Source of the DNA: an uncultured Elusimicrobia bacterium
GTDB lineage: Bacteria; Elusimicrobiota; Elusimicrobia; Elusimicrobiales; UBA9959
Assembly: GCA_903867985.1 (NCBI GenBank)
Contig: CAIPTO010000082.1
Span: 7,580 to 71,579 of the forward strand
Length of the DNA: 64,000 nt
Direction: 5' to 3'
Position 1 is the stretch's first letter. Each line of letters begins with the position of its first letter. Position numbers and translations under genes: made by a program. Below the pieces are notes generated by a model. It saw nothing but the letters and a program-made list of their open reading frames with translations, was not told where the DNA came from and made no database searches. Below, in pieces: positions 36,396 to 58,809 of the stretch.

Positions 36396-36514
36396 TAGTG
36401 CGTAGTGGTTAGTGAATAGTGAATAGTGAATAGTGAATAGTGAATAGTGAATAGTGACTTACCACTTACCACTTACCACTTACCACTTATCACTTATCAC
36501 TTATCACTTATCAC
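36396..36514. repeat. Abutting inverted heptamer arrays (family B)
   Basis: TAGTGCG TAGTGGT (TAGTGAA)x6 TAGTGAC, then (TTACCAC)x4 (TTATCAC)x4. Confidence 0.95.
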
Positions 36515-36538
36515 TTAACCTTATTACCCTGTTTAACT

Positions 36539-38684: not shown

Positions 38685-38757
38685 AAGTGATAAGTGGTAA
38701 GTGATAAGTGGTAAGTGATAAGTAATAAGACTTACAACTTAATCCTTACAACTTACT
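38685..38757. repeat. Inverted heptamer arrays (family B)
   Basis: AAGTGAT AAGTGGT AAGTGAT AAGTGGT AAGTGAT AAGTAAT AAG then ACTTACA ACTTAAT CCTTACA ACTTACT. Confidence 0.9.
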
Positions 38758-38782
38758 CCTGAGTCTTAATTTCGGAGACAAT

Positions 38783-44627: not shown

Positions 44628-45395
44628 ATGAAAGTAGTCATTTTGGCTGGCGGGATGGGCACCCGTTTAAGCGAAGAGACCGACCTGAAACCCAAGCCCA
44701 TGGTTGAGATAGGCGAAAGGCCCATGCTCTGGCATATTATGAAACTTTACTCCCATTACGGGTTTAACGATTTCATCATCTGCCTGGGCTACAAGGGCTA
44801 TATGATAAAAGAATACTTCGCCAATTATTTTATGCATCAGGCGGATGTTACCATAGACATGAAAACCAATAAGGTAGAGATCCATCACCAGAAGGCCGAA
44901 CCCTGGAAGGTAACGCTGGTGGACACCGGCCTTAATACCATGACCGGCGGCCGGATAAAAAAAATTGAGAAATACATAGACAATAAACCGTTTCTTCTTA
45001 CCTACGGCGACGGCCTTTCCGACGTGAACATCAAAGACCTGGTTGATTTTCATAAAAAGAGCGGCAATCTCGCTACGCTTACTGCCGTGCAGACCCTGGG
45101 GCGTTTCGGCGCGCTGGAAATTGCCCCAAAGGGCGGCGTTAAAGCCTTCAGGGAAAAGCCGGTGGGCGACGGAGCCTGGATAAACGGCGGATTTTTTGTC
45201 GTTGAGCCTGCCGCGCTTAAATTGCTTAAAGACGACTCCACAGTCTGGGAGCGCGAACCCCTCGAGCGTCTGGCGCGGGATAACAAACTGGGCGCTTATA
45301 AACATGCCGGGTTCTGGAAATGCATGGATACTTTAAGGGATAAAGTGGAGTTCGAAAAACTCTGGCGGGATAACGCGGCACCGTGGAAAAGATGA
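44628..45395 (+). CDS. rfbF: Glucose-1-phosphate cytidylyltransferase
   Basis: [46 protein letters not shown]. Confidence 0.96.
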
Positions 45396-48041: not shown

Positions 48042-49202
48042 ATGAAAAATAAAAACCTTCCATCCTCATCTTTTTGGCGTGACAAAAAGGTATTCCTCAC
48101 CGGACATACCGGCTTTAAAGGCGCCTGGCTCTCCATCTGGCTGGACGCTATGGGAGCAGAAGTCACAGGTTACGCTCTTAAGCCTCCCACAAAACCGAGC
48201 CTTTTCGAACTGTGCCGCGTTGACCGCTCCGTTAAGTCACTTATAGCCGATATCCGTGACGCAGGGCGCCTGCAAAAAGCTGTCCTGGCGGCAAGGCCGG
48301 AAATAGTAATTCACATGGCCGCCCAGCCCATAGTCCGGCAATCCTATAAAGATCCGCGCGAAACTTATGAAACCAATGTCATGGGTACGGTAAACCTGCT
48401 TGAGGCCGTCCGTAATTGCGGTACTGTGCGGGCCGTAGTCAATGTCACCACCGATAAATGCTACGAAAACAAGGAGCATCTCCGCGGGTACAAAGAGGAT
48501 GAACCCATGGGCGGTTATGATCCGTACTCAAGCAGCAAGGCCTGTTCAGAACTCGTCACTGCGGCCTATCGCAACTCCTTCTTTAATCCCAAATCTTATC
48601 GTGCCTCCTGCCGATCCTCCAGTCCTCTAATCCTCCAGTCCTCTAATCCTCCAGTCCTCCAATGCGCCCACCATGTGGCCCTGGCTTCAGCCCGGGCGGG
48701 AAATGTTATCGGTGGCGGGGATTGGGCGGCCGACCGCCTTATTCCGGACATAATACGCGCGGCTTTAAAGGGGGACAAAGTCCTTATCCGCAATCCCAGG
48801 GCAATACGCCCCTGGCAGCATGTTTTGGAACCGCTCAGCGGCTATCTGGTTCTGGCTGAAAAACTTTATAAGCGGGGCCCCGGTTACGCCCAGGCCTGGA
48901 ATTTCGGTCCCGACGCGGGCGACGCCAAAGACGTGGAATGGATAGCGGAACGGATGTTCTCCGCCTGGCCCGAAGCCCCCGGCTACGCTCTGGATAAAGG
49001 CCTTCACCCCCATGAAGCGCATTACCTGAAACTTGACTCCGCCAAAGCCCGCCGCGAACTCGGCTGGGCCCCGCGCTGGCGCATAGGCCAGGCCATAGAT
49101 AAAATAATAGAATGGACCCTGGCGTATCAAAACAGTCTGGATATGCGGGATGTGACCCTTGGACAAATAAAGGAATATATTGCCATAAGCCATAGGCTTT
49201 AG
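48042..49202 (+). CDS. rfbG: CDP-glucose 4,6-dehydratase (carries in-frame repeat insertion)
   Basis: TGHTGFKGAWL, HMAAQP.VR.SY, TTDKCYEN, DPYSSSK, ARAGNVIGGGDW, RPWQHVLEPL. Confidence 0.96.
   Translation: MKNKNLPSSSFWRDKKVFLTGHTGFKGAWLSIWLDAMGAEVTGYALKPPTKPSLFELCRVDRSVKSLIADIRDAGRLQKAVLAARPEIVIHMAAQPIVRQSYKDPRETYETNVMGTVNLLEAVRNCGTVRAVVNVTTDKCYENKEHLRGYKEDEPMGGYDPYSSSKACSELVTAAYRNSFFNPKSYRASCRSSSPLILQSSNPPVLQCAHHVALASARAGNVIGGGDWAADRLIPDIIRAALKGDKVLIRNPRAIRPWQHVLEPLSGYLVLAEKLYKRGPGYAQAWNFGPDAGDAKDVEWIAERMFSAWPEAPGYALDKGLHPHEAHYLKLDSAKARRELGWAPRWRIGQAIDKIIEWTLAYQNSLDMRDVTLGQIKEYIAISHRL
48612..48663. repeat. Octamer array YARTCCTC x6 (family D, right arm) in frame within rfbG
   Basis: CGATCCTC CAGTCCTC TAATCCTC CAGTCCTC TAATCCTC CAGTCCTC CAAT. 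Confidence 0.95.
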
Positions 49203-49667
49203 GCCGTAAGCTATAAGCCGTAGGCAGATTGGAAGAGGGAGCGAAATGGAAAAGTGGAAGAGTCTTGAGGTTTGGCAACTTGCTAATGATCTGGCGCATA
49301 AGGTTTATTTGGCAACAAAAGATTTTCCTAAAGAAGAGCTATATGGGCTGACATCCCAATTACGCCGGGCTGCTTTGTCAGTTCCTACGAATATAGTGGA
49401 GGGACATTCCAGGAGTGGGGATAAAGAACTTGCACGATTCTTAAATATTTCTTTGGGATCTCTCGGCGAAACAAAGTATCTTCTTTTCTTTTCAAATCAG
49501 TTGCAGTATTTGCCGGAGAAGTCTTTTCTTGAGTTGGATAAGTTAACCCAAGACGTTGGCGTAAAACTTTGGGCGTTCTATAAAGTTGTAAAAGAATAGT
49601 TCTGTTCTGCGTATGGCTAAATCTTATGGCCTAAAGCCTAAAGCCTAAAGCCTAAAGCTTATGGCAA
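49180..49667. mobile_element. Putative cassette: four-helix-bundle gene enclosed by inverted family A heptamer arms
   Basis: Perfect 11-bp terminal inverted repeat TTGCCATAAGC (49180-49190) / GCTTATGGCAA (49657-49667); arms 49182-49228 and 49605-49665; mobility is inferred, no TSD seen. Confidence 0.6.
49246..49599 (+). CDS. Four helix bundle protein (23S rRNA IVP family)
   Basis: L.VWQ.A..L...VY..TK.FPKEELYGLTSQLRRAA.SVP.NI.EG..R......RFL.IS.GSL.E. Confidence 0.93.
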   Translation: MEKWKSLEVWQLANDLAHKVYLATKDFPKEELYGLTSQLRRAALSVPTNIVEGHSRSGDKELARFLNISLGSLGETKYLLFFSNQLQYLPEKSFLELDKLTQDVGVKLWAFYKVVKE

Positions 49668-50433: not shown

Positions 50434-50677
50434 CTCCGCTCAGTCCTTTGCTGACTGCAGCAAACTCATTAAAAATGGCATATAGGGGAGCCAGTAAGTT
50501 CGCGAGGTCGCCGAGGGGTGGGTTCCAAAAACCAGGGTCGGGACACACCGTGCCCGCCCTTCCCTTCCTCAGCCTCGCCGCTTACGTAAGTCTCGGCTTC
50601 CGGAGGGTTTTTTCCACCCACCCCTCGGCGCCTGCTCCATTGATTCATATGTGAGGCCTGCGCATGGTGATTTAACT
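50413..50677. mobile_element. Structured non-coding insert flanked by 23-bp direct repeats
   Basis: GGCCTGCGCATGGTGATTTAACT at 50413-50435 and 50655-50677; internal perfect 15-bp stem 50509-50523/50616-50630. Confidence 0.6.
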
Positions 50678-50746
50678 TCGCCAGTCCTGCACTAGCTTTA
50701 AAAATGCAGTCAAATGCAACATTTGCGCCAAGTGGGTCCTTTGGGC

Positions 50747-50778
50747 GGATCCGCCAGTCCTTTGGCCCTCTAATCCTC
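50747..50778. repeat. Degenerate family D octamer right arm
   Basis: GGATCCGC CAGTCCTT TGGCCCTC TAATCCTC. Confidence 0.55.
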
Positions 50779-50796
50779 TCATACAAATTGCTATAA

Positions 50797-50984
50797 TTAA
50801 CCTAAATCCTGCAGTTAAAGATAGATTTCGTTTGGGAAAACCGGGAACATGATTATTCTGCAGGATTTCCCGCACACCGGGCTGAGGGCCCAGCGCTATG
50901 CGCGCCTGGCCCGAAGAGGTGTATGCCTCCCGAATGGGCGCCCGCAATGCGGGCGGAAAGTTGCAGCTGCAACTTTTAGGTTAA
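50797..50984. mobile_element. MITE-like element
   Basis: Terminal inverted repeats TTAACCTAAAtccTGCAG / CTGCAactTTTAGGTTAA; GC-rich internal hairpins; no credible ORF. Confidence 0.65.
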
Positions 50985-51019
50985 CTATATAATAAGCGAT
51001 TTGGAACTGAGGGACTGAA

Positions 51020-52534
51020 ATGGGCCTCAAAACTGCTAAAACCGAAAAAAAACTGCGCAAAGAGATACTTCGTAAGGTTTCGGAGTATCATGGCCTTTTC
51101 CATAAGAAAAAGGACTTTGAGCCAGGCAAGTCTTTTGTCGCTTACGGCGGAAGGGTATATGACGGGAAGGAATTATGCAATCTTGTCGGTTCCGCCCTTG
51201 ATTTCTGGCTTACTTCCGGCCCATATGTTGACGCTTTCGAGAAAAAGTTCGGAGAATTCCTTGGCGTCAGGCATGTTTCCCTCGTAAATTCCGGCTCATC
51301 GGCCAATCTTCTGGCGTTCATGGCCCTCACCTCCCCGAAACTTGGCGAAAGGCGCATAAAGCCCGGTGATGAGGTTATAACCGTCGCCGCCGGCTTTCCT
51401 ACCACGGTTACTCCTATAATCCAGTACGGCGCGGTCCCCGTCTTCGTTGATGTCGAAATTCCGTCCTATAATATCGATTGTTCTCTGCTGGAAAAAGCTC
51501 TTTCAAAAAAGACCAAAGCCGTAATGGTCGCCCACACTTTGGGCAACCCCTTTGACCTGAAAAAGGTCCGCGCTTTTTGCGACAAGCATCGCCTCTGGCT
51601 AATTGAGGATAACTGCGACGCTCTGGGCAGTAGGTACAGAAGAATGGAGGACTGGAAGACTGGAGGACTAGCCAAACCCGCGGATCTTTGCCGCTGCCAA
51701 TCCTCTAATCCTACAACCCTCCAAAAATCTGCTCTCTTGCCAATCCTCCAATCCTCTAATCCTCTAATCTTCCAATACACCGGAACTTTCGGCGATATCG
51801 GTACTTCCAGCTTCTATCCGCCGCATCATATGACCATGGGCGAGGGGGGAGCGGTCTATACTGATAACCCCCAGCTTAAAAGGCTTGTGGATTCTTTCCG
51901 TGACTGGGGCCGCGACTGCTGGTGCCCGTCCGGAAAAGACAACACTTGCGGTAAGAGATTCACCCGGCAGTTCGGCGAGCTTCCTTTGGGCTACGACCAC
52001 AAGTATGTTTACTCTCATTTCGGTTATAATCTCAAGGCCACCGAGATGCAGGCTGCCGTCGGCCTGGCCCAGCTTGAAAAGCTTCCCAAATTCATTGAAG
52101 CCAGAAAAAAGAACTGGCAATACCTGCGCAAAGCCCTTAATTCTTTTTCGGATAAGCTTATCCTGCCCGAACCCGCCGATAATTCCGACCCCAGCTGGTT
52201 CGGCTTCCTGCTGACGGTCAGGGGGAACGCCGGCTTCACCCGCGAAGAGCTGGTCAGCCATCTTGAGGCCAATAAAATACAAACCCGCGTGCTGTTCGCA
52301 GGCAACCTTATAAAGCACCCCTGCTTCGACGAAATGCGCCGCTCCGGCAAAGGCTTCCGCGTCGTAGCCGGCGCTTCTCGCCAGTCCTCCAATCCTCCAA
52401 TCCTCCTGGCCTCATTGCCCGTTACCGACCAGATCATGCGCGACACTTTCTGGATAGGCGTCTATCCCGGCATGACCGTAGAAATGCTGAAGTATGTCTC
52501 GGATACTTTTAAATCTTTTTTTAACCGTTCGTAA
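51020..52534 (+). CDS. rfbH: CDP-4-keto-6-deoxy-D-glucose 3-dehydratase (E1), with two in-frame repeat insertions
   Basis: [60 protein letters not shown]. Confidence 0.95.
51639..51776. repeat. Complete family D hairpin (left arm plus two right arms) in frame within rfbH
   Basis: GAAGAATG GAGGACTG GAAGACTG GAGGACTA ... CAATCCTC TAATCCTA CAACCCTC ... CAATCCTC CAATCCTC TAATCCTC TAATCTTC CAAT. Confidence 0.95.
52382..52413. repeat. Family D right arm in frame within rfbH C-terminus
   Basis: CAGTCCTC CAATCCTC CAATCCTC CTGGCCTC. Confidence 0.9.
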
Positions 52535-52543
52535 AGGATCATT

Positions 52544-53596
52544 ATGAGAACATATATCGCGGGCCACACCGGATTGGTCGGCTCGGCTATTTGCCGGAAA
52601 CTGGCTGCCGGCAAAAAGCATGAGCTGCTGGTAGAAGATCACGATAAGCTGGATTTGAAAAGGCAGAAAGAAACCGAGGACTATTTTAAAAAAAACAAAC
52701 CGGATTGGGTTTTCCTCGCCGCGGCAAGGGTCGGGGGGATACTCGCGAACAGCACCTATAAAGCCGAATTCATCTATGATAATCTGGCCATTGCCCTCAA
52801 TGTTATAGATGCCGCTTATAAGACGGGAGTGAAAAAACTTTTAAACCTCGGTTCTTCGTGCATTTATCCCAAACTCGCCCCCCAGCCGATGAAAGAGGAG
52901 TCGCTGCTTACAAGCGCGCTGGAACCCACCAACGAGGCTTACGCCATCTCGAAAATAGCTGCTTTAAAAATGTGCCGTTATTACAACGAGCAGTACGGCA
53001 CCAACTACATCTCGGCGATGCCCACCAATCTTTACGGACCGCACGATAACTATAATCTGGAAACCGCCCACGTCCTGCCCGCCATGCTCAGGAAATTCCA
53101 TCTCGCTAAGCTCTTAAAGCTTAGGGATTTTTCCGCTCTCTCTAAAGATCTGCAGAAGCGTCCCATAGGCTTCGGTCTCGATAAAAAAGTGGATTTTAAG
53201 GATGAAGGCTCCATTTGCGCCGCTTTGGAGTCCATAGGCGTTACGGCGGACAGCGTTCTTCTTTGGGGCACAGGCGAAGTTTACCGGGAATTTCTGCACG
53301 TCGACGATATGGCGGCCGCGGCCCTGTTCCTTATGGAGAAATGCGATTATTCCGATATCGGCGAGATAATAAATATCGGCACGGGTGAAGATCTGAAATT
53401 AAAGCTGCTGGCGCACATTATAAGAGACGCGGTTGAGTACGACGGCGCCATAAAATACGATACCTTCAAACCCGACGGCACCCCAAGAAAACTTTTAGAT
53501 ATCTCAAGGATAAGGGCGCTGGGCTGGCAGCCCGCGATCCCGTTAAAAGACGGCGTAAAACAAAGCTACGCGTGGTATCTGTCTTCTCACGCGTAA
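52544..53596 (+). CDS. fcl: GDP-L-fucose synthase
   Basis: AGHTGLVGSA, AAARVGGI.AN, LGSSCIYP, EPTNEAYA..K, MPTNLYGP.DN, REFLHVDD, PDGTPRK. Confidence 0.93.
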   Translation: MRTYIAGHTGLVGSAICRKLAAGKKHELLVEDHDKLDLKRQKETEDYFKKNKPDWVFLAAARVGGILANSTYKAEFIYDNLAIALNVIDAAYKTGVKKLLNLGSSCIYPKLAPQPMKEESLLTSALEPTNEAYAISKIAALKMCRYYNEQYGTNYISAMPTNLYGPHDNYNLETAHVLPAMLRKFHLAKLLKLRDFSALSKDLQKRPIGFGLDKKVDFKDEGSICAALESIGVTADSVLLWGTGEVYREFLHVDDMAAAALFLMEKCDYSDIGEIINIGTGEDLKLKLLAHIIRDAVEYDGAIKYDTFKPDGTPRKLLDISRIRALGWQPAIPLKDGVKQSYAWYLSSHA

Positions 53597-57291: not shown

Positions 57292-57534
57292 TTCTGCGTA
57301 TGGCGTAAATCGTAAGCAATTCTGCAAATGGCCTAAATCGTGAAGCGGAAAACGTAAAGCGTAAATAGTAAGAAGTCTTTATTCTGCTTATGGCTTAAAT
57401 CGTAAAGCGTAAAACGTAAATAGTAAAAGATTCTGCAAATGGCCTAAATCGTAAAGCGGAAAACGTAAAGCGTAAATAGTAAAAGATTCTGCGTATGGCA
57501 AACGGCGAATGGCATATGGCAAACGGCTTACGGA
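57292..57534. repeat. Five tandem family A right-arm modules, each starting TTCTGC
   Basis: TTCTGC at 57292, 57320, 57382, 57431, 57487, each followed by heptamers such as AAATGGC CTAAATC GTAAAGC GGAAAAC. Confidence 0.92.
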
Positions 57535-57599: not shown

Positions 57600-58736
57600 A
57601 TGCATATTAAGAGAACTATACAGGCGAGTATTGAAAAGAGCCTTTTCAAAAACAAGGTTCTTATACTTTACGGCGCGCGGCAAGTGGGCAAGACCACTTT
57701 GGTCCGGGAGATACTTAAAAAGCATCCGGGGCAGTCAGCGTATTTAAATTGCGATGAACCTGACATTCGTGCCGCTTTGACAGACAAGACTTCTACCGAA
57801 CTTAAAGTTTTTTTTAAGGAAAAAAAGTTTATTGTTCTTGATGAGGCCCAGCAGGTCAAAAACATCGGCCATACGCTTAAAATAATAGCCGACAATCTGC
57901 CGTCCACGCAGATCCTTGCCACCGGATCGTCCTCTTTTGAGCTTTCAGACAAAATAGCCGAGCCTTTAACCGGAAGAAAGAGGGAGTTTCTGCTCTATCC
58001 GTTCTCTTTCCAGGAATTGGCGTCTTTCTATTCGGAAGTTGAAATGGACAGGCTGCTTGAACGCCGTATTATTTATGGCATGTACCCTGAAATAGTAGCC
58101 GGTAAAGAAAACACCGAGATAAACCTTAAAAGCCTTGCGCGCAGCTATTCTTACAAGGATGTTCTTAAATACCAGAATATAAAAAACCCGGATCTGCTGG
58201 AAAAGCTCCTGCAGGCCTTGGCGCTCCAGGTCGGCAATGAGGTGTCTTATAATGAGCTGGCAGCCCTTTTAGGGATAGATAAGAATACCGTGGCGTCCTA
58301 TATTCAGATCCTTGAAAAGGCGTTTATTATTTTCAGAGTGGGGCCGTTCAGCAGGAATTTACGCAACGAACTTAAAAAACTCCGTAAAATTTATTTCTAC
58401 GATACCGGGCTCCGCAACGCTCTTATAAACAATCTTAATCCGCTTGATCTGCGCCAGGATGTGGGGGCTTTGTGGGAAAATTTTGTTATATCCGAAAGAC
58501 GGAAGTTCCTCGCCAATACCGCTCTTGATAGAAAAGGGTATTTCTGGCGGACAGCCCAAAAACAGGAGATCGACTATCTGGAAGAAGGCGGGGGACATTT
58601 GTGGGCGTTTGAAGTAAAATGGAGAAAAGAAAAATTCAGGACCCCGAAAGTATTTTCACAGGCATATCCTGACGCGGAAGTTTCGCTGGTGACCTCAAAA
58701 AATTATAAAGATTTTATAGGCGCGGTCAAAGCGTAA
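57600..58736 (+). CDS. AAA_14 ATPase with DUF4143 (wHTH and PD-(D/E)XK-like C-terminus)
   Basis: GARQVGKT, LDEAQ, TGSSS, LTGRK, KIYFYDTGLRN, GALWEN, YFWR....EID, AFEVKW. Confidence 0.9.
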   Translation: MHIKRTIQASIEKSLFKNKVLILYGARQVGKTTLVREILKKHPGQSAYLNCDEPDIRAALTDKTSTELKVFFKEKKFIVLDEAQQVKNIGHTLKIIADNLPSTQILATGSSSFELSDKIAEPLTGRKREFLLYPFSFQELASFYSEVEMDRLLERRIIYGMYPEIVAGKENTEINLKSLARSYSYKDVLKYQNIKNPDLLEKLLQALALQVGNEVSYNELAALLGIDKNTVASYIQILEKAFIIFRVGPFSRNLRNELKKLRKIYFYDTGLRNALINNLNPLDLRQDVGALWENFVISERRKFLANTALDRKGYFWRTAQKQEIDYLEEGGGHLWAFEVKWRKEKFRTPKVFSQAYPDAEVSLVTSKNYKDFIGAVKA

Positions 58737-58809
58737 ATCGACAATCGGAAAGCGGAAAGCGTGAAACGTAAAGCGGAAAACGTAAAGCGTAAAGCCTAAA
58801 GCCTATGGC
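58726..58809. repeat. Family A heptamer array (12 units); supplies the ATPase stop codon
   Basis: TCAAAGC GTAAATC GACAATC GGAAAGC GGAAAGC GTGAAAC GTAAAGC GGAAAAC GTAAAGC GTAAAGC CTAAAGC CTATGGC. Confidence 0.92.

Follow-up and report, generated by a model that had tools for sequence, protein, structure and literature searches.

The STRR sequences of cyanobacteria are tandem heptanucleotide repeats, and the tetranucleotide repeats of Haemophilus are simple-sequence contingency loci within lipopolysaccharide (LPS) genes. Direct repeats of the sequence TAACTGA are described from the Beggiatoaceae in the relevant part of PMC4679880. The Rickettsia palindromic elements (RPEs), as presented in the corresponding part of the review PMC10969869 (citing Ogata et al. 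2000, 2002), form dispersed families of about 150 bp that lie in frame in unrelated genes and encode a fold-compatible peptide, which is described there as conserved. Here, we analyse a stretch of 64,000 nt (G000:C82:7580-71579, hereafter the window) from an Elusimicrobiota genome of 2.62 Mb in 147 contigs (G000), in which rfbH, the gene for the CDP-6-deoxy-hexulose 3-dehydrase E1, contains a 133-nt hairpin assembled from tandem 8-nt units. The segment belongs to a hairpin family found throughout the genome, and we consider it probable, from comparison of sequences, that it is translated as a tolerated loop within a functional RfbH. The new point is a recurrent slot at this position of rfbH, the content of which appears, across related genomes, to turn over much faster than the gene itself. 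A literature search of limited coverage found no tandem-octamer hairpins in Elusimicrobia and no repeat inserts in RfbH.

Anatomy of the rfbH insert

A BLASTN alignment of the window with the orthologous region of G002, a congeneric genome, ends at 51639 and restarts at 51773, with flanks of approximately 90% identity on either side. The components of the intervening segment, along with the conserved codons of rfbH around it, are listed in Table 1. Period-8 arrays were detected by Tandem Repeats Finder (TRF) at 51639-51669 and 51740-51776, and the window contains 15 occurrences of the degenerate two-unit pattern where 0.19 are expected, a total that none of 100 shuffles attained. The sequence-only reading had placed a 138-bp hairpin with a four-unit left arm and two right arms at 51639-51776, and had estimated that it adds about 40 amino acids. 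This architecture is confirmed, with coordinates accurate to about 4 nt and a dissimilar segment of 133 nt, and the net gain is 39 residues, there being 46 residues between Y206 and Y253 here and 7 in insert-free relatives. That reading had called it the clearest coding-region example in the window, and among the copies inside genes of G000 that of rfbH is the most clear-cut full hairpin.

Table 1. Positions in the window of the insert, its parts and the associated coding features.
Feature	Position	Strand	Details
rfbH (CDP-6-deoxy-hexulose 3-dehydrase, E1)	51020..52534	+	504 amino acids, intact open reading frame; equivalog, PDB and Foldseek matches
Codons of EDNCDALG (E196-G203)	51605..51628	+	Directly upstream of insert; 42-sequence alignment
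Left arm, four 8-nt units RGARGAYT	51638..51669	+	AGAAGAAT GGAGGACT GGAAGACT GGAGGACT
Inserted or replaced segment, 133 nt	51640..51772	+	Unlike G002 orthologue; codes for residues 208-252 together with flanking junction codons
Loop 1, unique, with small inner GCGG/CCGC stem	51672..51698	+	Sole full-length match in genome BLAST is itself; others 11-16 nt
Right arm 1, ARTCYTCY in three units (two degenerate)	51699..51722	+	AATCCTCT AATCCTAC AACCCTCC; unpaired in minimum-energy fold
Spacer 2, unique sequence, 19 nt	51723..51741	+	BLAST of genome
Right arm 2, four units ARTCYTCY	51742..51773	+	AATCCTCC AATCCTCT AATCCTCT AATCTTCC; pairs with left arm in minimum-energy fold
Codons of H269-H270	51824..51829	+	Alignments to 3bcx and 3bb8; both invariant (42 sequences)
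Codons of C300, C302, C310	51917..51949	+	Invariant columns; with C199, four invariant Cys
Second in-frame array of rfbH, a single arm of three ARTCYTCY units	52381..52406	+	Within 14-residue segment without E1 counterpart
In-frame array in rfbG (CDP-glucose 4,6-dehydratase, 48042-49202), six units of octamer family	48614..48663	+	

The predicted fold of the insert on the mRNA strand has an energy of -42.7 kcal/mol (z -2.3; 4 of 200 shuffles were equally good), that of the antisense strand reaches -70.3 kcal/mol (z -5.2; none of 200 shuffles), and that of single-stranded DNA is -14.2 kcal/mol (z -0.3); the hairpin depends in part on G-U pairs of the antisense strand. No terminator-like site was found at the insert. 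We rejected an intramolecular triplex formed by the one purine and two pyrimidine arms, an idea drawn from part of PMC4666352, as the right arms are direct copies of one another and not mirror repeats.

The insert is not an assembly artefact, because an independent contig of 832 nt, from a run of another metagenome study (X2, record 3), spans 51341-52172 with no differences and no gaps. The right part of the insert is also covered by contigs of two more runs, and the protein record P0121 contains an insert peptide that is 100% identical. A search with the insert peptide alone, which recovered our own protein and one partial duplicate among 8 candidates, was uninformative on the breadth of its distribution. 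A joint of 51671 to 51744 in X3 was considered as a variant of rfbH and rejected, as its 38 other letters match a family copy on contig C34 of G000.

Identity, selection and predicted structure of RfbH

The rfbH product matches the RfbH equivalog NF011936 (NCBIfam) with 726.3 bits, for a cut-off of 423, across residues 6-502 (profile positions 3-437 of 440), and the Pfam family DegT_DnrJ_EryC1 with 291 bits. Its alignment to the solved E1 dehydrase 3bcx (E 7e-161) comes in two blocks, query 9-207 with chain 3-201 and query 253-502 with chain 204-434, between which 2 residues of E1 stand opposite 45 of the query. In a single 42-sequence RfbH alignment, used both for residue conservation and as input for AlphaFold2, we found E196, D197, C199, D200, L202 and G203 to be invariant and N198 and A201 to be nearly so, and a GEGG motif is likewise invariant. 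H269 corresponds to His220 of E1, with SFYPPHH aligned to SFYPAHH in 3bcx and to SFYPAKH in the H220K mutant 3bb8. A catalytic histidine and a four-cysteine [2Fe-2S] motif are hallmarks of E1 according to the relevant part of the review PMC8987622, and C199, C300, C302 and C310, mapped Cys by Cys, are putative [2Fe-2S] ligands. The insert begins 7 residues past D200 and ends 17 residues ahead of H269, and the spacing of C199 and C300 is lengthened by about 43 residues relative to E1.

Over 444 gap-free core codons, dN/dS is 0.10 in comparison with G002 (dS 0.35) and 0.09 in comparison with G004 (dS 1.2). The core of rfbH is thus under strong purifying selection, and the relaxed selection that the sequence-only reading had named as a sign of decay was looked for and not seen. 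The structure prediction that it had proposed gave an E1-like fold with the insert as a low-confidence loop. The AlphaFold2 model has a mean predicted local distance difference test (pLDDT) score of 84.6 and a predicted TM-score (pTM) of 0.86, and Foldseek matches it to 3bcx_A with an E-value of 6e-57 and a TM-score of 0.93 normalised to the target. Values of pLDDT below 50 are found at residues 214-245 and 453-462, and strands at 205-207 and 251-253 border the insert, which thus appears in the model as a loose loop on the tip of a beta-hairpin, with the core E1 fold unaltered.

Reading frame of the insert

The gene's own frame runs through the insert without a stop, and each of the other two sense frames contains 2 stops (TAG 51669 and TAA 51765 in frame +1; TAA 51706 and TAA 51757 in frame +2). 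The codons at the in-frame unit junctions are TGG (51653) and CAA (51698, 51722, 51749 and 51773), in agreement with the earlier observation that in-frame unit positions are always TGG or CAA and that the TAG and TAA variants are out of frame. Taken alone, the rfbH copy shows a modest effect, with all 5 in-frame junctions open and 4 of the 8 out-of-frame junctions stops. Non-coding copies of the octamer family have TAA or TAG at 73 of 144 YAR junctions, therefore an unfiltered copy would often close the frame.

Five orthologues with inserts were read at the DNA level, in G000, in G002 and G004 (both congeneric with G000), in G021 (another genus) and in L015 (a Nitrospirota metagenome-assembled genome, MAG), and all five inserts are in frame and stop-free, despite differing in sequence and in length (33-51-residue spacers). 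In addition, all 38 insert-bearing protein clusters of the survey described below are full-length RfbH. These observations argue strongly that the insert is translated and not removed from the RNA, because removal or bypass would leave nothing to enforce either the frame or the freedom from stops.

Occupation of one site by unrelated hairpins

We compared the insertion site between related genomes. In G002, whose protein is 87% identical, a hairpin of a 16-nt family lies between the same junctions, TAC-AG ... CAA-TAC, and in G004 the site holds a GAAGGTTG hairpin, such that G000, G002 and G004 carry different families between identical junctions in proteins that are 83-87% identical. The site contains a CATGCCTC type in G021 and yet another octamer hairpin (-56.5 kcal/mol) in L015, at 64% identity. 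There is no insert, and there are 7 native residues at the site, in G001, which is also congeneric, and in G026, G011 and G012. The units were counted in their own genomes against controls, giving 168 matches of ARTCYTCY in G000 (10 in the control), 42 of the 16-mer in G002 (none in the control), 65 of the L015 unit, which is dispersed in that genome (6 in the control), and 12 of AACCYTCC in G004 (5 in the control), most of the latter on the rfb contig. Nine of these 12 two-unit AACCYTCC matches are within 4 kb of the rfb cluster (G004:C4, 59859-63910), to which this family is nearly confined.

Two broader samples were examined. Among 92 loci, 80 of them from other species and the rest from relatives, the spacer at the site has 12 residues in 74 and 8 residues in 9, and is expanded only in the insert lineages. 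Among the best 120 RfbH clusters out of 5.8 billion proteins, it has 12 residues in 36, 8 in 42 and 20-56 in 38, with 4 that could not be scored. A survey of RfbH homologues for unrelated repeat inserts, as the sequence-only reading had proposed, thus found many, most of the 38 expanded spacers being visibly repeat-coded, e.g. RRLEDWK.GG ... QPSNPPTLQPSNP. Across these 120 clusters, internal insertions of at least 6 residues occur after just two positions, approximately 207 (site 1, 38 sequences) and 451 (site 2, 56 sequences). On a FastTree phylogeny of 116 clusters, made with the spacer left out and with many weakly supported branches that render the counts rough, the presence or absence of an insert at site 1 requires at least 18 changes, and site 2, at which 57 of 111 clusters are expanded, at least 11. 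Raw counts give 33 clusters expanded at both sites, 4 at site 1 only, 24 at site 2 only and 50 at neither, and independent pairs showed no correlation between the two sites. Within G000, and likewise within G002, both rfbH sites carry one common family. In the clade of P0001, the spacer of P0005 looks native, and that of P0004 resembles a collapsed insert of the G002 type (RMQSD-FQ).

Similar turnover was seen outside rfbH. At both of the two intergenic junctions that we examined in G000, G001, G002 and G004, the interval from a conserved stop codon to a conserved start codon is occupied by a hairpin of octamers, by one of heptamers, by a further GC-rich hairpin, or by next to nothing. No target duplication was visible at these two filled-versus-empty junctions or at the rfbH junctions (three sites).

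We additionally identified two other forms of elaboration in RfbH homologues. In a genome of the same family (G020:C89, locus L093, 1238..3295), EDN and CDALG of the rfbH orthologue are separated by an intein-like insert (CVDGDR...VLLHN|C) that exceeds 400 residues. It coincides with the first conserved Cys and thus lies 12 residues upstream of where the hairpins are found; the contig ends within the gene. Eight homologues of 551-602 residues (P0054, P0064, P0066, P0075, P0088, P0095, P0103 and P0119) carry a PemK/MazF-type domain (PF02452, from precomputed Pfam annotation), and may represent either fusions or miscalled starts.

The octamer family and other tandem arrays in the genome

With the degenerate two-unit octamer pattern we identified 69 arms in 54 elements of G000, 14 of which are hairpins of a left plus a right arm. 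Within the 8-nt unit, variation takes the form of transitions (R or Y). The rfbH copy shares its arms with many loci of the genome, its 27-nt and 19-nt loops match only themselves, and loop sequences vary between the copies of the family. Considering all arrays of period 7, 8, 14 and 16, and using gene calls made here from open reading frames (ORFs) that cover 88% of the genome, we counted 259 elements. Of these, 142 lie between genes, 49 overlap the end of a gene, 20 are no more than 60 nt from one, and 48 are inside called genes; several of these 48 are probably chance repeats.

All 10 of the other ORFs with in-frame arrays that we scanned have Pfam domains, among them polyketide synthase (PKS) modules, a PD-(D/E)XK nuclease, an aldolase, UvrD, radical SAM, NuoM-like, MobA-like and UDG proteins. 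The arrays in these genes are mostly single arms, located in linkers, termini or loops, and give peptides such as SKTARQQDSAA. Two of the PKS genes (G000 C11:40918-41022 and C47:869-975) share a composite in-frame segment, SKTARQQDSAA..., in an inter-domain linker, consisting of two repeat families side by side. In G004 and G001, the rfbG orthologues carry different repeat-coded peptides where G000 has the rfbG array of Table 1, and also at their N-termini.

Arrays of other families were found elsewhere in the window. Intergenic modules at 57292-57527 and 58728-58805 combine TTCTGC..ATGGC with 7-nt arrays (TAAATCG, TAAAGCG, GCCTAAA), and differ greatly in number and order between G000 and G002, within flanks that are 90-95% identical. 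Back-to-back perfect 7-nt arrays, of other families in the same style, are present at 36403-36517 (TAGTGAA x7 followed by ACTTACC x8.7) and at 38685-38760 (AAGTGAT followed by ACTTACA). A gene for a four-helix-bundle protein (TIGR02436, weakly Avd-like) lies between 7-nt arrays of GCCATAA and GCCTAAA (49182-49225, 49246-49599 and 49629-49658). We rejected a link of this protein type to the arrays, since its 2 copies above the cut-off in the genome are too few for at least 54 elements, and also a link to RAYT enzymes, since TRF detects no 7- or 8-nt arrays in the roughly 1.5 kb flanking each of the two Y1_Tnp genes (C71 and C96) on both sides.

Genes and sequences adjacent to rfbH

The window contains a nucleotide-sugar cluster around rfbH, with the equivalogs rfbF (44628-45395) and rfbG (48042-49202) and a thiamine diphosphate (ThDP) enzyme. 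We found no gene for an E3-like reductase in the cluster, and two NAD_binding_1 proteins elsewhere in the genome. Upstream of rfbH lies a non-coding stretch of about 590 nt (50434-51019) with no Rfam match, of which only the middle part is conserved with G002 (…GCCAGTCCTTTGGCCCTCTAATCCTCTC…TTGCTATAATTAACC), including a TATAAT-like box. Downstream, at 52544-53596, a GDP-fucose-synthase-like protein of 350 residues matches a 308-residue profile over two separate stretches with 433 bits, short of the cut-off of 500, and has an insert of about 40 residues near 192-235 that is not repeat-like in appearance.

Origin and maintenance of the insert

The 133-nt segment is one copy of the dispersed hairpin family whose arms consist of the 8-nt units RGARGAYT and ARTCYTCY, and we propose that it would be transcribed and translated with rfbH to give about 39 extra, probably unstructured residues, in a loop that follows the EDNCDALG strand and precedes the strand running on to the catalytic His269. 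It would persist as tolerated, apparently neutral and not needed, with selection presumably filtering in-frame variants of the unit, such that CAA and TGG are kept and TAA and TAG are removed, and limiting the survivors to two permissive loops of RfbH. The junctions shared by unrelated families may reflect the sole tolerated position, or an existing hairpin or the site itself may attract the next element.

Several points weigh against this explanation. Low pLDDT is no proof of disorder or of harmlessness, and the insert separates the first from the other three Cys by about 43 more residues and stands 17 residues before the catalytic His, where it might conceivably influence activity or the docking of a reductase partner. 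A strong hairpin in the mRNA (-42.7 kcal/mol here, and about -52 in G002 and L015) could hinder translation. The use of the same junctions and of only two internal positions goes beyond what tolerance alone would lead one to expect, and may speak for function or targeting. The census of the genome was built on our own ORF-based gene calls, and the absence of stops at the in-frame junctions of coding arrays (0 of 10) is a partly circular result. Translation, neutrality and the mechanism of arrival are all inferred here.

Alternative explanations

Given that the mRNA forms a stable hairpin and that the site falls in a conserved region of the enzyme, the hairpin might also be removed or skipped at the RNA level, by intron-like excision, by RNase III processing and rejoining, or by ribosomal bypass. 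The sequence-only reading had set this beside a long repeat-derived loop near the cofactor motifs; the loop is borne out by the frame, dN/dS, the catalytic residues and the model, and removal or bypass we regard as highly improbable, on comparative grounds only. The chance of frame alone for the five in-frame, stop-free inserts is about (1/3)^5, the insert contains no bypass-type in-frame stop after a take-off codon, and Rfam at the gathering threshold recovered a single tRNA and no intron family in the whole window. To our knowledge, there is no bacterial pathway that rejoins an mRNA after excision of a hairpin. Still less probable is the decay of rfbH as a pseudogene, or an assembly chimera as the source of the insert, as a repeat insert near active-site motifs and the frequent breaking of other runs' contigs at the repeat might suggest, given a dN/dS of about 0.1, an intact ORF with every invariant residue retained, an independent contig identical through the insert, and the identical insert peptide of P0121. 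A contingency locus, in which the gain or loss of one 8-nt unit shifts the frame and switches rfbH and rfbG off or on, would suit a unit length not divisible by 3, the arrays in two genes of the dideoxyhexose pathway, and array lengths that vary between relatives. It is nonetheless very unlikely, considering that the units are few (3-6) and imperfect, that similar arrays are present in PKS, UvrD-like, NuoM-like and UDG genes, and that contigs of 4 runs are without indels, the last being a weak point since contigs drop rare variants.

It is possible, though we doubt it, that the slot is functional or targeted, either because the hairpin (as RNA or DNA) or the peptide is selected, or because the site, or a hairpin already present there, is the target of some insertion machinery, with the new copy replacing the old. 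This would accommodate the different families of G000, G002 and G004 at TAC-AG ... CAA-TAC, the minimum of 18 state changes among 116 clusters, the restriction of insertions of 6 or more residues to 2 positions in 120 clusters, the presence of one family at both gene sites in G000 and in G002, the differing contents of both intergenic junctions in four congeneric genomes, and the antisense RNA fold with a z of -5.2. However, most RfbH proteins lack an insert, those of close relatives (G001, P0004 and P0005) among them, therefore the insert is dispensable. Furthermore, the strand preference in folding is inconsistent over 5 inserts and 13 intergenic copies, the native site resembles the unit only modestly (median rank in the top 11% of windows, with 24 of 74 genes in the top 5%, in rows that are not independent), and no enzyme could be linked to the arrays.

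Two more specific ideas were considered and set aside. Seed homology between the unit and the native codons for DGEWK has modest support, and inserts are also found in an 8-residue background without this motif (P0007). Selection for weak mRNA structure would be consistent with a sense strand that folds much more weakly than the antisense strand in G000 and G021, but this is not the case in G002, G004 and L015, and 13 intergenic copies are unbiased.

Implications and comparison with known systems

The main interest lies in the pattern of a recurrent slot rather than in a single insert. Tentatively, the elements may constitute a class of hairpins, mobile or self-renewing, that has yet to be described from freshwater Elusimicrobiota and Nitrospirota, with arms of tandem 7-8-nt (or 16-nt) units, unique loops, and fixed intergenic and RfbH slots, replaced far faster than the genes around them. 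If so, insertion or replacement would be directed by the hairpin or the site, by a mechanism unlike that of MITEs (miniature transposable elements with inverted repeats), REPINs or RPEs, and would provide enzymes with a steady supply of new translated loop sequence. The RfbH loop has taken dozens of unrelated inserts of 8-44 residues (20-56-residue spacers, against the usual 12) with the gene retained, and is thus a natural experiment in one loop that lies within the long spacer of the Fe-S motif, at a distance of 17 residues from the catalytic histidine. This bears on the tolerance and acquisition of new loops by enzymes, on how annotation pipelines handle low-complexity segments in MAG proteins, and on what moves or renews short tandem-repeat hairpins, for which fixed slots and fast turnover make congeneric comparison informative.

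Like MITEs and the REP/REPIN-RAYT system, the elements are small, hairpin-forming and dispersed, mostly at gene ends or between genes. No terminal inverted repeat with target duplication, as expected of MITEs, was seen at the two filled-versus-empty junctions examined, and loops are variable here, where in MITEs the whole element is conserved; in contrast to REP/REPIN-RAYT, both Y1-transposase genes of G000 are without flanking arrays. The many tandem 7-8-nt families across intergenic regions, and the 7-nt arrays of the window, recall STRR and the TAACTGA repeats, although those, in the part of the source that describes the latter, are intergenic direct repeats, whereas here arms are paired in inverted orientation and also occur in frame inside genes. 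With LPS contingency loci they share non-triplet tandem units within surface-polysaccharide genes, but the units are few, imperfect and provided with an inverted partner, they are found in housekeeping genes as well, and the contigs of 4 runs, which hide rare variants, showed no differences in array length. The intein-like insert of the G020 orthologue, 12 residues upstream, is likewise a selfish insert in a conserved part of RfbH; inteins, however, remove themselves through splicing motifs, whereas the 46-residue repeat-coded segment has no such motifs and must remain.

The RPEs, in so far as the cited part of the review describes them, resemble the rfbH insert in that each is a member of a dispersed family lying in frame in an intact gene. 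They differ in that only the arms are common here, as tandem 8-nt units with unique loops, such that the conservation of the whole element seen in RPEs does not extend to this family, in that several unrelated families occupy one site in close relatives, and in that the present elements are hosted by freshwater Elusimicrobiota and Nitrospirota that are free-living. Hairpins that are read as protein are known mainly from Rickettsia, and the same outcome would appear to have been reached here in unrelated, free-living phyla, by a differently built element.

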